IMG/VR virus record: IMGVR_UViG_3300045801_000012
Span: 1 to 30,747 of that record
From: a virus
Lineage: Duplodnaviria; Caudoviricetes
Length of the DNA stretch: 30,747 nt
Reading direction: 5' to 3' (one strand)
Shown piece by piece: positions 7,116 to 18,065 of the stretch; within the stretch, counting starts at the first letter, position 1, and the number at the start of each line of letters is the position of its first letter. The position numbers and the translations under genes were made by a program. The notes beneath the pieces were generated by a model. It did not search any database and was not told the DNA's origin. It was given only the letters and a program-made list of their open reading frames with translations.

Positions 7116-7235
7116 GGTGACGATGGTTATGATAGTTATGACCGTCTAGCCCCTACGCGGGAAAGAAAGTTTTTTTTTCTATATTGGTGGGGCGGTAGGA
7201 AGGAGACAGTCAACATTATCACAATCATCGTCACC
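7116..7235. repeat. 32-bp imperfect inverted repeat flanking an A/T-rich core
   Basis: ggtgacgatggttatgatagttatgaccgtct (7116-7147) versus agacagtcaacattatcacaatcatcgtcacc (7204-7235); the core contains gaaagaaag and a T-run. Confidence 0.85.
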
Positions 7236-7240
7236 CGAGA

Positions 7241-7296
7241 CTGGCCGTCGGGCTATCCACTGCTGGCCGTCGGGCTATCCACTGCTGGCCGTCGGG
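7241..7296. repeat. 22-bp tandem repeat, about 2.5 copies
   Basis: ctggccgtcgggctatccactg at 7241 and 7263, partial at 7285; the 10-nt core recurs at 7445. Confidence 0.95.
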
Positions 7297-7595
7297 ACCA
7301 CCAGAGGTGGCAAGCCCGCAACTTTGCTGCACTGCAGTCAAAGATCATGCATTTCATTCATCCAATTTTAGGTTTCAATGAATCGGATTCATACTCAGAC
7401 CACGATACGACCGTTTCGTGGTCCAAGCGGCCGCTCGCTTGCGCCTGGCCGTCGAGCTCTGCGCGGCTAGGGGTACCCCAGATCCTGGAATGCTGGCATA
7501 GAACCCAAAACCCCCACAGGGATCGGCCAGTACCGGTACGTCCCGTTCGTCGCGGCGCGGGCAAAAACCGTTTAGATCCTACGGCGCACCCCCAG

Positions 7596-7653
7596 GATCG
7601 TCACCATCGTCACCTACCTTTAGTAACTTGCAACTGATCGTCACCATCGTCAC
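7596..7653. repeat. 18-bp direct repeat (iteron-like)
   Basis: gatcgtcaccatcgtcac at 7596-7613 and 7636-7653, each holding two ATCGTCAC cores that are also present in the inverted-repeat arms. Confidence 0.9.
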
Positions 7654-7732
7654 ACCGAAATATGTCCACAAACTCGCGCCGATCTCCCTAATCAGTGTGG
7701 AGGGGCTATTAACTTCACCCCCGGTGAGAACC

Positions 7733-8327: not shown

Positions 8328-8605
8328 GCACCGTCAAGATGCAAGTCGTCTGGCACCTGAAGGATGCGTACTGGATTGAGGAACAACCGGAGATGGACAC
8401 GATCTCGGTCCTGCTTCAGGCGGGCGGGGAAGAGTACGCAGTGGCGTGTTCGGGTCCCAAGGGCATGACCTCGAACCAGTTCATTTCGGCACTGCGCGCT
8501 GCGACCGCGGGCCTGATCCGAGCGACCGGCGGTGACATGTCGGTGGTCGGGGTCGGCACCCTTGAGGACGCAACATTTGACACGGGCGCCCAGCGCCCAA
8601 GCTGA
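8324..8605 (+). CDS. Hypothetical protein (93 aa)
   Basis: MSTVKMQVVWHL...; coupled start. Confidence 0.65.
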   Translation: MSTVKMQVVWHLKDAYWIEEQPEMDTISVLLQAGGEEYAVACSGPKGMTSNQFISALRAATAGLIRATGGDMSVVGVGTLEDATFDTGAQRPS

Positions 8606-8630
8606 CGACGATTTTTTTTGGAGGATACCC

Positions 8631-8861
8631 ATGCCGATGCCAACCAGACCCCAGATGGGTATCAACCCTGCCGCGGTGCAAGCAGCAATCGCCGGACAGG
8701 GCGAAGGTGCGCGGCCAGTGGTCGCACCCCCGCAGATGAGCAACACGGCGCAGCGGTTGAACCCGATGCTTGACCGGACCGCGGCGGTCGCGGGTTACGC
8801 GGACGGCAGCATGCCGACCATGCGCGGGCCGGGGCAGATTCCAAGGAATTTCAGCGCCTGA
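8631..8861 (+). CDS. Pro/Met-rich low-complexity protein (76 aa)
   Basis: GGAGG RBS before ATG 8631; MPMPTRPQMGINPAAVQAAIAGQ... Confidence 0.7.
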   Translation: MPMPTRPQMGINPAAVQAAIAGQGEGARPVVAPPQMSNTAQRLNPMLDRTAAVAGYADGSMPTMRGPGQIPRNFSA

Positions 8862-8875
8862 CGGCGCACAGATTT

Positions 8876-8941
8876 TCCGCCTTCGTCTAAGTGCCGGACG
8901 CCCCGCACACTGGGGAAATGTAGCATGCTCCTACAGGCGGA
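8876..8941 (+). ncRNA. Candidate structured RNA: cloverleaf / four-way junction (strand uncertain)
   Basis: Closing stem tccgcc/ggcgga and three hairpins (cgtct/ggacg, cccc/gggg, tgtag/ctaca), each with a 7-nt loop; intergenic; followed by a T-run. Confidence 0.55.
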
Positions 8942-9002
8942 TTTTTCAGATGGGTGGTGAGATACCCGACGACGATGCAATTTTTACAGAAGGAGTCTCA
9001 CC

Positions 9003-9455
9003 GTGACCTGGGGAAATAATGGCGCCGGACCTGTTGGTGTACCGCCCGTTGGGCCGAACCCGCTCGCCGGCCAAGTGATCGGCAGCGGTGGCGCGGCGTA
9101 CCCGCCCTACTATCAGGCGAGCTTTGAGTCTGTGCTGGCGGCGGTCTCGCGCGGCGAGGTGTCGCTGAACCAGCTCGTCGCGAGCGGCAGCCAGTTCGGT
9201 GGCAACAACCCTGCCGCGCAGCAAGGGAACCCGACCCTGCTCCAAGGCTTCAGTCAAGGCTTGGGTCAGAACGGCACGAACGGATTGAACGGTATCGGCG
9301 CCGGCGGCGGGACCGTGAACTCCAGCATCGCGAGCGTGAACTCTGCTCCGGGCAGCTTCGGCGTTTCCGGCCAGACGAACACGATCAACCCGAAGCTGCC
9401 ACTGAGCGACCCGGGCGTGGCGCTGGCGTCCCCCATTCAATACGGTGGCAATTGA
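9003..9455 (+). CDS. G/N/Q/P-rich low-complexity protein A
   Basis: AAGGAG RBS and GTG start; 5 charged residues in 150 aa; motif ESVLAAVSRGEVSL. Confidence 0.8.
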   Translation: MTWGNNGAGPVGVPPVGPNPLAGQVIGSGGAAYPPYYQASFESVLAAVSRGEVSLNQLVASGSQFGGNNPAAQQGNPTLLQGFSQGLGQNGTNGLNGIGAGGGTVNSSIASVNSAPGSFGVSGQTNTINPKLPLSDPGVALASPIQYGGN

Positions 9456-14616: not shown

Positions 14617-14653
14617 ACAGCTAAGTTTTTCATTCTGCAGTGAGGTGCGGGAT

Positions 14654-14947
14654 ATGTCGACGCTAGAGTTTGGTCAGACGTTGATGAACGATCTGATCGC
14701 TGTGCATTTGTTGGACAAGGCGGAGGAGGTCATCAAGCTCCCAGACTGGCAGCGTATTTTGCGCGGCAAGGTGGTTGCGGTGGGGCCGGGCCGGATGTTG
14801 CCGCTCGGTGAGCGCGCGCCGATGGAGTGCAAGGTCGGCGACGTCGTGACGTTTGCGGCGACGGCTGGGATGGACGCTGACTTCGGCGTTGGCAAGAAGA
14901 TCCGGCTGATGCGCGACAGCGACGTTGACGCGGTGGTGCTCTCATGA
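14654..14947 (+). CDS. groES: GroES/Cpn10-like co-chaperonin 1
   Basis: LMNDLIAV...IKLPD...RGKVVAVGPGR...MECKVGDVVTF...LMRDSDVDAVV matches Cpn10 motifs; TGAGGTG RBS. Confidence 0.88.
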   Translation: MSTLEFGQTLMNDLIAVHLLDKAEEVIKLPDWQRILRGKVVAVGPGRMLPLGERAPMECKVGDVVTFAATAGMDADFGVGKKIRLMRDSDVDAVVLS

Positions 14948-15489
14948 TGCTCACAGAAGAGCTCGAAGAAATTGGTCGACGCGTACGCGTGCTCCGCGAC
15001 CGGGTGCTTGTCAAGGTGCTCCCTTACGTGCACCCGACGCTGGTGACGCCCGGGATCGAGATCAACAAGGGCGTCGTGATCGCGGTAGGCTACGGTCGCC
15101 GCCAACGCCGCAAGACAGAGTTCAAGCAATCGATCGATGACGGTACGCCGGTCATCGGTCCTGACGGTAAGACCGTCATGAAGTTTGCGAAGAGCAAGCT
15201 CTCGGGCCGCTCGCTGTGGTTTGAGGACGGGCCCGAGACGGGCGCGATCATACCTATGCAAGTGAAGCCGGGCGATGTTATCGAGTTCAGTTTCCGCAAC
15301 ATCACCTTTGTTGACATGGACAAGGTAGGATTCCCCGGCATAGGTGACCTCGCGTTCGTTTGGGAAAAGGCAATCTACAGCGTCGACCCAGACGAGTCGC
15401 TCAACGAGTGCTTGCTCTGGCAGCAGTCCGCAGGGTACGACCGCAACGGGAACTATATGTCAGGCAGCGAAGATTGGCATCGCGCATGA
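14944..15489 (+). CDS. Divergent GroES-like protein 2 with a large roof insertion and C-terminal extension
   Basis: VRVLRDRVLVK...KGVVIAVGYGR-[insertion of about 45 aa]-IIPMQVKPGDVIEF...FVWEKAIYSV. Confidence 0.78.
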   Translation: MMLTEELEEIGRRVRVLRDRVLVKVLPYVHPTLVTPGIEINKGVVIAVGYGRRQRRKTEFKQSIDDGTPVIGPDGKTVMKFAKSKLSGRSLWFEDGPETGAIIPMQVKPGDVIEFSFRNITFVDMDKVGFPGIGDLAFVWEKAIYSVDPDESLNECLLWQQSAGYDRNGNYMSGSEDWHRA

Positions 15490-16571
15490 TAGGCTCTAAA
15501 GAGCAACTGCCGGGAGCCCCCAAGCACCCGTGGGGTAAGTGGCCGAAAATAAACCCCGAGACCGTAGCGCCGCTGCGCAACGGGATCCCGAACATGTACG
15601 ACCACGTACCGACGCGTTTCGTCAGCAAAGCTGAAGCGGAGGCGCGCGGGTGGCAGCATTTTTGGACCGGAGAGGTGTGCGTTACGGGGCACCGCGCCGC
15701 GCGTTACGTTTCTAATATTAGCATGTGCGTAGATTGCGTCCGTATCCAGAAAGGCAAGCTGCCAGTTTACGGTAAGGGTATTCCCGAGCTCGAGGCCGCG
15801 CGCCGGCGTAACTATACGCAGAAGCACACGGCAGCTATCGCGGCGCCCCCTCAGCCGAGCAACGCCGAGAAGCGTTTTCTTGAGCGGTACGCTGAGCACA
15901 AGGACTTTGCGATCGCCGCGGAGTCGCTGGGGCGCACCGAAGCCGAATTTTTGGCGATTTTGAGCTGGAACACGGTGTTCCGTGACGCAGTCAACCGCCT
16001 CGAGGAGAGCCTCGGCATCGCCCGAACGCAATCGCTGACCGATGAGTTCGACTGGACCGACGAAAAACGACGCGCGTTCCTGATCACGTACGCCAACACG
16101 GCCGACGTAAAGCAAGCGCTGCGTGCTGTCGGGGCCACGAACGTGCAGTTTCACAAAGAGTTGGCGACAAATTCCGAATTTCAGAGCGATTTTGACGAGG
16201 CGAACCAGATCGCGCGCAACGTTTTCGATCACGCAGCCTCCGCGGCAGCGACCAAAGGCGACGCGCGCATGCTGGGGCGCATTGCGGCCAACCTGTTCCC
16301 CGAAAAATTCGGCGAGAACATGAAAATGGACCTCAAAGTGACTCAAAATCTCTCACTGGACCAGGCACATGCGCAACTTACCAACCTCATATCAAGATTT
16401 GATCGACAGGGTCTACTCTCCGATGCCGGAGAAGCTGAAGACGCTGTTGAAGAAGCAGAATATCGGGTCCTTGAACCTGCGGGAGACGACGCAGCTGATC
16501 CAGATCCTGAGCGATCGAGCGAAAGTGCAGGATCAGACGCAAATAGTGACCTGGTTTCAGGACCCGTCTGA
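15486..16571 (+). CDS. Putative terminase small subunit with an N-terminal zinc domain and tandem HTH domains (361 aa)
   Basis: Lies just upstream of the large terminase; WTDEKRRAFL...EFQSDFDEA HTH and FPEKFGE oligomerisation-like motif; N-terminal EAEARGWQHFWTGEVCVTGH...CVDC; start at the ATGA overlap. Confidence 0.7.
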   Translation: MIGSKEQLPGAPKHPWGKWPKINPETVAPLRNGIPNMYDHVPTRFVSKAEAEARGWQHFWTGEVCVTGHRAARYVSNISMCVDCVRIQKGKLPVYGKGIPELEAARRRNYTQKHTAAIAAPPQPSNAEKRFLERYAEHKDFAIAAESLGRTEAEFLAILSWNTVFRDAVNRLEESLGIARTQSLTDEFDWTDEKRRAFLITYANTADVKQALRAVGATNVQFHKELATNSEFQSDFDEANQIARNVFDHAASAAATKGDARMLGRIAANLFPEKFGENMKMDLKVTQNLSLDQAHAQLTNLISRFDRQGLLSDAGEAEDAVEEAEYRVLEPAGDDAADPDPERSSESAGSDANSDLVSGPV

Positions 16572-17289
16572 CCATCCGACGCTGAAAAACTGCCCGCTGG
16601 GCCGAAAAAACTACCCGAAGCAAATGCAGTTCTTCGCGTTGGAGCAAACCAGCGACGAGATCGCACTTTTCGGCGGTAACCGAACCGGTAAGACGCACTG
16701 CGGCTGCTTCGCGGACGCACTGCACCTCACCGGGCTCTACCCTAGCTGGTGGCCTGGTAGAAAATTCAATCGGCCCATCAATATGTGGGTCGCGACCGAC
16801 ACCGCGAAGAACACGCGAGACATTTTGCAGGCAAAGTTCTGCGGACCGCCCGGGCAAGAGCAATCGTACGGCACCGGGATGATTCCTGGCGACCTGCTGG
16901 TGCGGCGGACGGTCAAGCACGGTCTTGCGGACGCGTTCGAGACGGTGTTCGTCCGGCACGTGTCCGGCGGCCTTTCGACGTTGCAGTTCAAGTCGTACGA
17001 CCAGGGCCGAGAATCGTTCCAGGGTACGCAACAGGACCGGATCCATCTTGACGAAGAGCCGAAGCTCGAGATCTACACCGAGTGTCTGCTGCGTTTGATG
17101 AGCACCGTGCCCGGGCAACCGAACGGCACGCTGGTGCTCACGGAAACGCCGCTGCTCGGTGTCTCTGAGCTGATGATCAGCTACATGCCGGACCTGGCGC
17201 CAGAGCCGGACGCCGTCGTAGCCGACGCGTGGTCGATGGGCGAAGAAGAGGAGCTTGTTGTCGATGAAAACGCCAATGAGACTGCGTAA
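16369..17289 (+). CDS. terL: Terminase large subunit, ATPase half (P22-like); alternative start at 16423
   Basis: Q motif YPKQMQF, Walker A FGGNRTGKT, FKSYDQGRESFQG, Walker B IHLDEE and coupling motif TETP. Confidence 0.92.
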   Translation: MRNLPTSYQDLIDRVYSPMPEKLKTLLKKQNIGSLNLRETTQLIQILSDRAKVQDQTQIVTWFQDPSDHPTLKNCPLGRKNYPKQMQFFALEQTSDEIALFGGNRTGKTHCGCFADALHLTGLYPSWWPGRKFNRPINMWVATDTAKNTRDILQAKFCGPPGQEQSYGTGMIPGDLLVRRTVKHGLADAFETVFVRHVSGGLSTLQFKSYDQGRESFQGTQQDRIHLDEEPKLEIYTECLLRLMSTVPGQPNGTLVLTETPLLGVSELMISYMPDLAPEPDAVVADAWSMGEEEELVVDENANETA

Positions 17290-18065
17290 TGTCGAAAGCG
17301 GCTGTTTTTTTAGACATGAGTGACGTCCCCCACTTGGGTGAAAAAGAGATGAAGCAGATCCTTGCGGGAGTACCCTCGTGGCAGCTGCAGGCGCGTAAGT
17401 CTGGTATTCCAGGCCACGGCACCGGAGCTATCTACCCGATCCCCGAAGACGTGATGCTGATCCAGCCTTTTGACATCCCGGCGCACTGGCCGCGCTCGTA
17501 CGGCATGGACCCGGGCTGGAACTGCACCGCAGTGATCTGGTTCGCGTGGGACATCGACAACGGGTTCAAGGACGCCAACGGCGTCACGCGGTACCCGGCG
17601 ATCGCGTACGACGAATACTATCGGGGCCAAGCGGACCCGGCAGTGCACGTTGCAGCCATCAACCGCCGCGGTCCGTGGATACACGGCGTCATCGACCCCG
17701 CCGCGCAGAAAGCGCGCGGTACCGACGGCGAGCTCTTGATCGATACGTACTGTCGGCTCGGGCTAAAGGTCAGCAAGGCCGACAACACGGTCGTGACCGG
17801 GCTCGTGCAGACTTGGGACATGCTCTCAACGCAGCAGCTGCGCATATTCAACACGTTGACGAACTGGCGCAAAGAAGTGCGCCTTTACCGTCGTGACGAG
17901 AAGGGAAACATTATCAAGAAAAACGATCACCTTATGGACGCCACACGCTACAACGTGATGTCTGGCTTTGAGGTGGCGCGGGCGCCCCCGGCGAGCGAGG
18001 GCGGCCTGCCCTGGTTTGCTTGGGCGCCGGAGATGGTGACCGCGGGCGGCGTATGGAGTGGGTGA
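17289..18065 (+). CDS. terL: Terminase large subunit, nuclease (RNase H-fold) half
   Basis: DVPHL...ARKSGIPGHGTGAIYP linker, YGMDPGWN, VIDPAA and NDHLMDATRY; TAATG coupling. Confidence 0.92.
   Translation: MSKAAVFLDMSDVPHLGEKEMKQILAGVPSWQLQARKSGIPGHGTGAIYPIPEDVMLIQPFDIPAHWPRSYGMDPGWNCTAVIWFAWDIDNGFKDANGVTRYPAIAYDEYYRGQADPAVHVAAINRRGPWIHGVIDPAAQKARGTDGELLIDTYCRLGLKVSKADNTVVTGLVQTWDMLSTQQLRIFNTLTNWRKEVRLYRRDEKGNIIKKNDHLMDATRYNVMSGFEVARAPPASEGGLPWFAWAPEMVTAGGVWSG

Follow-up and report, generated by a model that had tools for sequence, protein, structure and literature searches.

A 66-nt cloverleaf RNA (positions 8876-8941, plus strand) is encoded in the window, by which is meant the whole stretch of viral DNA analysed here (30,747 nt), a 30.7-kb linear virus record that is 52% complete. 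The RNA is very likely of tRNA-Glu origin, is in all probability a structure maintained by selection and is almost certainly non-decoding, and the family that it represents, with six distinct sequences in related P22-like phages, is real and apparently undescribed. The favoured reading, held at a probability of roughly 0.45, is of a tRNA-Glu mimic that is released by processing, does not decode and serves as a decoy for a host protein binding tRNA-Glu.

Parts and Fold of the Cloverleaf

The acceptor-like stem pairs 8876-8882 with 8935-8941 over 7 bp, five of which are changed on both sides among the members, and is followed by the most conserved part of the RNA (8883-8900), comprising U8, C9, a tRNA-Glu-type D arm with a 4-bp stem (8885-8888/8896-8899) and a 7-nt loop (8889-8895), and G26 at 8900. 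A remnant anticodon arm without an anticodon (8901-8915) keeps its stem, spans 11-17 nt among the members and varies freely in its loop. It leads to a 4-nt variable loop without residue 47 (8916-8919), whose U48 (8919) partners A15, and to a remodelled T arm without TTC (8920-8934), built of a 4-bp stem and a 7-nt loop. Position 73 is T8942 and CCA is not encoded. A U-run trailer (8942-8946) follows the stem, as a U-run does in five of the six members, and an AGATTT leader (8870-8875) precedes it, of a type also found before several genuine tRNA genes of related phages. All of these parts lie on the plus strand.

An earlier, sequence-only reading of this stretch had described a closing stem with three hairpins, which is borne out by the sequence and by the minimum free energy (MFE) fold, with the closing stem at 8876-8882/8935-8941, and had remarked on the lack of TTC, D-loop GG and CCA in the window, which is equally correct. 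That reading had also stacked a last hairpin of 5 bp on the closing stem; the register that fits a tRNA is a 7-bp closing stem with a 4-bp last hairpin rather than 6 + 5, although A8935 is common to both and usable either way. Support for the structure comes from homologs. Taken singly, the window sequence folds no better than chance would allow (z −1.45; equalled by 17 of 200 shuffles; neither strand significant), and the centroid structure omits the first hairpin.

Rfam gave no gathering-level match in the window, and within 8600-9100 at E values up to 10 it gave two spurious sub-threshold matches; extended to the window together with the homolog loci, the same search recovered ordinary tRNAs only. 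ARAGORN did not call the cloverleaf, even at a relaxed setting that produced 34 spurious calls in the window, and a blastn query with 8870-8975 matched none of 50,697 phage records. An HDV-like ribozyme fold drawn by eye with 8863-8869 was dropped; the pairing is absent in the homologous locus L002.

Homologs and Covariation

Homologs were reached through the protein encoded at 9003, which led to 9 and then 23 viral loci, one genome locus and 75 metagenome loci. One of these loci, L002, showed the same arms by eye, with both partners altered in 6 of 21 pairs relative to the window, and a model built from these two sequences matched L076 (65.9 bits), L120 (49 bits) and L177 (74.1 bits); a five-member model then matched L404 and an identical copy, L406 (54.9 bits). 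L177 emerged among 120 loci, drawn from 59 of the 64 parts of the collection, that carry a 14-base D-arm pattern. These comprised this one new member, L002 again, two loci of a second cloverleaf type described below and a remainder that apparently matches by chance, while a tight pattern of two arms matched only the contig of L002. Four loci with the D-arm string and no cloverleaf (L316, L317, L318, and L320) were dropped.

Across the six distinct sequences, 95.6% of 114 cells are paired and 9 of 19 pairs are changed on both sides, in six related members that were located with structure-aware models and in which most D- and T-stem pairs are invariant. None of 500 shuffles reached the observed pairing, a count that is not a probability because the phages are related, and slid controls gave 34-47%. 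The seven acceptor pairs are formed in 97.6% of cells, and RNAalifold, run on five members, independently yields the identical four helices. L404, which was located after the structure had been fixed, retains every one of the 15 pairs in the acceptor, D and T stems, with two as G-U. Pairing is weakest in the middle stem (83%), and its loop spans 3-9 nt across the members, the arm in L404 being a 7-bp hairpin with a 3-nt loop. Pairwise identity is highest at the unpaired D-arm positions (96%), followed by the T loop (80%), the variable loop (63%) and the middle loop (25%), to be set beside 54% (333/616) and 50% (192/383) at four-fold synonymous sites of two neighbouring genes in the same phages. 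In DNA run X2, several contigs fit 8877-8946 only and then run into unlike flanks, which suggests further variants of the cloverleaf.

Origin From tRNA-Glu

The tRNA-like character suspected in the sequence-only reading, which had offered a novel non-coding RNA or a tRNA mimic among its options, is upheld by the covariation in six members and sharpened to tRNA-Glu by a blind search. For the latter, a model made from the six phage RNAs only was applied to the genomes of 151 bacteria. Apart from G001, the genome containing L076, at least 41 of the 151 genomes gave one match each at 27-36 bits; 33 candidates were scored per genome, so that genomes with no match are uninformative. Inspection of 27 of these matches identified 26 as tRNA-Glu(CUC) and one as an odd tRNA that ARAGORN does not call. 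In E. coli, the six-member model scored gltT at 28.6 bits vs 19.3 bits for tRNA-Gly. A bacterial tRNA-like gene at L428:1501-1576 (minus strand), likewise uncalled by ARAGORN, has a Glu-type D arm, a normal T loop and an enlarged anticodon arm.

Direct comparisons point the same way. Glu ranked first among 63 tRNA calls in a gapped comparison, by a modest margin (19.0 vs 16.8), and over a core of 14 positions (8-15 and 21-26) it ranked first among 48 E. coli tRNAs (11.4/14; next 10.2; median 5.8) and among the 39 tRNAs of G001 (11.2; next 9.0). In a third set of six tRNAs, whose calls are offset by one base, Glu tied with Asp (7.6/14).

According to the available part of one study, U11-A24, U13-G22:A46 and the lack of a residue 47 are major determinants of tRNA-Glu, the anticodon bases are the strong ones, and G1-C72 is a weak one (PMC9976931). 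U11-A24, U13-G22 and the lack of residue 47 are found in all six members, while position 46 is A in two and G in four. There is no fixed anticodon loop, U34, U35, C36, and A37 being absent as a fixed set, and G1-C72 occurs in none of the six. With the anticodon determinants and G1-C72 gone and A46 present in two members, synthetase binding may be weak.

Retained and Lost tRNA Features

Bacterial tRNA-Glu (RF00005; E. coli gltT and actinobacterial tRNA-Glu(CUC)) and the cloverleaf share topology, arm order, a 7-bp acceptor stem with U7-A66, the D stem with U11-A24 and U13-G22, a 4-nt variable loop and the start of the anticodon stem. U7-A66, U8, A14, and A15 with U48 (the Levitt pair) are present in six of six members; the corresponding residues of E. 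coli tRNA-Glu are G15 and C48. The cloverleaf further differs from tRNA-Glu in a shortened D loop that lacks GG in five of six members, and in a canonical anticodon arm (17 nt, 7-nt loop, U33) that has given way to one of 11-17 nt with a free loop. Its T stem has 4 bp instead of 5 bp, its T loop lacks TTC in every member, and the 7-nt loop, which ends in an invariant GCUC, stands in place of nine bases (G53 to C61). CCA is encoded in none of the six, vs 18 of 19 genuine tRNA calls in related phages. Positions 1:72 and 73 vary freely across the members, two of which could form an eighth acceptor pair. An invariant GC in the D loop could pair with an invariant GC in the T loop, a contact on which covariation is uninformative as both are invariant.

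An identical 17-nt D arm occurs in a different cloverleaf of an unrelated phage (L314:2493-2568 and L319:2493-2568). In this second type, the middle arm measures 17 nt, the T arm is a different one of 6 bp, and the ends are ACC(A), of which L319 encodes ACCA; the six-member model scores its two sequences, L314 and L319, at 28.7 and 27.1 bits. Represented by these two near-identical sequences, it would reflect either shared ancestry or convergence, with the D arm as the common part. After the second-type cloverleaf, L314 carries another stem-closed sequence ending in ACCA (~2595-2648).

Comparison With Known RNAs

Among known RNAs, the allo-tRNAs and irregular polycistronic tRNAs of peat and forest soil share with the cloverleaf a 4-bp T stem, a soil source, an association with tRNA clusters and, in some members, a place outside translation, as described in the available parts of two papers (Mukai et al., 2017, PMC5389517; PMC7609411). 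They differ in that their branch spans 12 bp (8/4 or 9/3), that most have a long variable arm and that they carry an anticodon, where the cloverleaf has 7/4, a 4-nt variable loop and no anticodon (PMC5389517; PMC7609411). YrlA, as far as the available text describes it, is likewise a non-decoding tRNA mimic that also occurs in phages, keeps the Levitt pair and varies hardly at all in its D and T sequences (Chen et al., 2014, PMC4201824). It is reordered (T arm, closed acceptor, D arm) and retains tRNA-type D and T loops, whereas the cloverleaf has the ordinary order and no TTC; YrlA moreover has a module that binds Ro60 and adjoins a Ro60 gene, neither of which is seen for the cloverleaf (PMC4201824, available text). 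For a Ro60 gene within 4 kb, no Pfam match was obtained among the 45 ORFs of the window, flanking genes included.

The pRNA of phi29 is a multi-way junction in a phage, as is the cloverleaf, which differs in having no conserved loop-loop complementarity and in the type of packaging motor that its phage encodes. RNAC and RNAD of T4 lie in the T4 tRNA cluster and are longer than the cloverleaf. As small late phage RNAs to which no function is assigned in the part of the source consulted (PMC9697503), they are likened to it by description only. The cloverleaf is like a tRNA mimic yet does not qualify as a tRNA, YrlA, allo-tRNA or pRNA.

No description of the cloverleaf RNA was found in the published literature as far as its available texts extend, the supplements of PMC10690425 and PMC5389517 being places that could hold one. 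Neither the motif nor the contig numbers tried were matched in four supplements of PMC10690425, and the available portions of PMC12445682 and PMC12990946 hold nothing relevant to it. PMC10690425, in its accessible part, reports 8,495 viral candidate RNAs, and these may include the family.

Genomic Context and Expression

Upstream of the cloverleaf lies a 76-aa ORF with no assigned function (8631-8861, plus strand), a homolog of which precedes the cloverleaf in L120; a search for confirmed relatives of this ORF among viral contigs returned none. Downstream, on the same strand, a 150-aa Gly/Asn-rich gene with a GTG start (9003-9455) is the first of a run of unannotated genes. The cloverleaf is close to tRNA genes in two members, starting 3 nt after the CCA of a tRNA-Met in L076 (called at a relaxed threshold only) and ending 8 nt before a tRNA-Met in L120. 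Its leader resembles the U-rich leaders found on 13 of 19 genuine phage tRNAs. In L177 and L404, it lies between homologs of window genes 14173 and 14645, before a Cpn10-like gene, and starts 4 nt after a stop codon in the latter. It was not found in four relatives of 97-100% completeness. On this distribution, the cloverleaf behaves as a movable, accessory unit of a tRNA slot.

Of four RNA runs, one (X6) covers the cloverleaf. It holds two 151-nt pieces at depth 4, one of which is 8788-8938 and joins the upstream gene to the cloverleaf; the pieces may be precursor RNA or DNA.

Between the cloverleaf and the gene at 9003 stands a GGGT/ACCC hairpin (8952-8968, plus strand) with GGTGAGA in its loop, a family-wide motif separate from the cloverleaf. 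The sequence-only reading had noticed this hairpin, the U-run before it and the ribosome-binding site (RBS), all of which are confirmed, the hairpin at 8952-8967 and the RBS ahead of the GTG at 9003. The near-invariant GGGTGGTGAGA.ACCC motif (window 8952-9002) occurs at ~44 distinct loci of 83 examined, most without a cloverleaf, and in a single copy per genome in the window and in five of five relatives. Its use as a multi-copy late promoter was considered and is unsupported, there being one copy per genome. The hairpin loop is complementary to a CTCAC-type stretch between the RBS and the start codon, so placed that a long hairpin or a pseudoknot could form; in the window, the segment 8991-9005 (plus strand) holds the RBS, TCTCACC (complementary to 8956-8962) and the GTG start of the 150-aa gene, and the predicted fold of the region covers the RBS. 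The motif may serve translational control of the first late gene or late operon, or be a protein site, and it is independent of the cloverleaf. Of the distinct related loci, 41 show 400 nt or more ahead of the motif; within 600 nt of it, 15 of these have a tRNA-Asn or tRNA-Met and three have the cloverleaf. The stem of the motif is shifted in L073.

Proposed Function and Alternatives

Why phages carry tRNAs is an open question, to which current answers, according to the accessible part of PMC10264068, concern functional tRNAs that substitute for ones which host defences have cut; a conserved, non-decoding tRNA-Glu body points to a further use, as a ligand and not as an adaptor. In the favoured reading, the RNA would be co-transcribed with its neighbours, in a tRNA or late transcript, and host tRNA-processing nucleases would release it at the U-rich leader and trailer. 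An L-shaped core held by U8/A14, A15-U48 and the short variable loop would then display the D helix of tRNA-Glu, and a new elbow contact between the invariant D-loop GC and T-loop GC may form. With no fixed anticodon loop and no CCA, the RNA would be neither decoded nor charged, and in some hosts it would tie up either glutamyl-tRNA synthetase or a defence enzyme directed at tRNA.

Three points favour the decoy role: what is conserved is the face of tRNA-Glu that proteins recognise, what has been removed is what tRNA-cutting defences usually target, and the spread of the cloverleaf is patchy. Patchy spread is typical of host-specific counter-defence genes. It counts against the favoured reading that an 11-bp acceptor-T helix with an altered T loop may not be a substrate for RNase P or the CCA enzyme. 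That the cloverleaf is made as a discrete RNA at all is somewhat probable, and a decoy role, granted a discrete RNA, is rather likely. The rebuilt elbow offers a natural test of what a tRNA fold requires, and within 66 nt invisible to ARAGORN and Rfam, the invariant positions provide targets for mutation and pull-down.

A broader and much more speculative proposal, probably not correct, is that phages have repeatedly made tRNA-Glu into small anti-defence or anti-synthetase decoy RNAs, of which this family would be the minimal version. If true, the Glu D helix has been retained, the anticodon and CCA, as enzyme targets, have been removed, and the elbow has been rebuilt by the GC/GC contact; the identical D arm in an unrelated phage would then mark the binding surface.

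The main rival to the decoy is a role in cis as a processing or termination signal, in which the tRNA-like fold would act as a cleavage mark, an exonuclease block or a partial terminator that tunes late-transcript levels. The cloverleaf is indeed always intergenic and sense to transcription, with a U-run directly 3′ of its stem in five of six members, and both its universal lack of CCA, which genuine phage tRNAs so regularly encode, and its position just past a stop codon in L404 agree with such a role. A terminator, however, needs no invariant D loop, A15-U48 or tRNA-Glu identity, and a terminator scan made no call at the cloverleaf, where the U-run follows a branched stem; the tRNA-Met of L120 lies only 8 nt downstream, and the T loop, which RNase P reads, is the remodelled part. 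A role in cis is considered unlikely, if still a serious competitor.

Service as a glutamyl donor outside the ribosome, for which the host would add CCA before charging with glutamate, is improbable. The D-helix determinants in all six members and the ACCA encoded by the second-type L319 would suit such a donor, and irregular tRNAs that are charged and not translated have been reported (PMC5389517, in the part available). Against it stand the lack of CCA in the six members, the freedom of 1:72 and 73 to vary and the loss of the anticodon determinants, and no phage synthetase or transferase was detected among the ORFs scanned. These searches, covering the 45 window ORFs and 74 ORFs of two relatives (partial sets), returned no member of the synthetase, Ro60 or CCA-enzyme families.

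A dead tRNA-Glu gene in slow decay would explain why every decoding feature is lost and why the cloverleaf is absent from four near-complete relatives. This reading is already largely refuted by the nine pairs changed on both sides and by retention of the cloverleaf at two genomic positions; loops that are no longer tRNA-like are more conserved than near-neutral synonymous sites, which argues against a decaying gene, and decay is rated very improbable.

Slightly weaker still is the attenuator leading the low-complexity gene cluster that the sequence-only reading had put forward, here taken as an attenuator or riboswitch for gene 9003 acting jointly with the GGGT/ACCC hairpin. In the window, 10 nt separate the cloverleaf from the hairpin that follows it, and in L002 the two are just as close, but in L076 the distance is ~370 nt, in L120 a tRNA-Met intervenes, and in L177 and L404 the cloverleaf precedes another gene, the Cpn10-like one, with no hairpin downstream. 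The hairpin for its part mostly occurs without the cloverleaf, which lies near it in so few of the 41 loci.

A multimer formed by kissing of loops 1 and 2 in the manner of phi29 pRNA has next to no likelihood, for although the two 4-bp registers reported between these loops exist in the window, none of the five homologs beyond it has a 4-bp register, the middle loop is the least conserved part and shrinks to 3 nt in L404, and the portal and terminase of the phage are of the P22 type. The chance that three random 7-nt loops include a 4-bp match is 19%, and that of two registers against this loop 1 is 0.8%; the complementarity is, as the homologs indicate, a chance feature of the window genome.

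Other Elements of the Slot and of the Phage Genome

In L120, the stretch just before the cloverleaf (407-434) repeats the opening bases of the tRNA-Met that lies downstream, joined to a short segment ending in ACCA, and is possibly a deletion remnant. A stem-closed element of ~55-65 nt lies directly 5′ of the cloverleaf in both L002 (~2790-2843) and L177 (~535-590), which are loci at different genomic positions; it was seen in 2 of 100 loci. L068 has a stem-closed stretch after a tRNA-Met (2788-2848), preceded by a U-run, in which a cloverleaf can be drawn by eye that the MFE fold does not support. Another conserved hairpin occupies the same slot in 9 of 100 loci (L006, L070, L075, L088, L101, L104, L123, L132, and L143), two further motifs occur before the GGGT/ACCC motif in 3 of 100 loci each, and L065 holds there a GNRA-rich structure of ~350 nt. 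These other slot motifs were unmatched by Rfam in the loci tested.

The window carries P22-type portal, coat and terminase genes together with primase-polymerase and lysozyme genes, and the nearest cultured portals are 35% identical to that of the phage. The sequencing runs in which at least half of the words sampled from it occur are metagenomes of permafrost, and one of them may be its source. The large terminase (16369-18065) has its ATPase and nuclease domains in separate ORFs, and two adjacent Cpn10-like genes lie at 14645-15489. L076, a contig of the phage family, is filed in a Solirubrobacterales MAG and is either a prophage or a binning artefact. Between divergent gene blocks, the region 7116-7660 of the window contains an inverted repeat of 41 nt (7116-7156/7195-7235) and tandem repeats of 22 nt (7241-7311) as well as repeated ATCGTCACC, and is a possible origin or packaging region.
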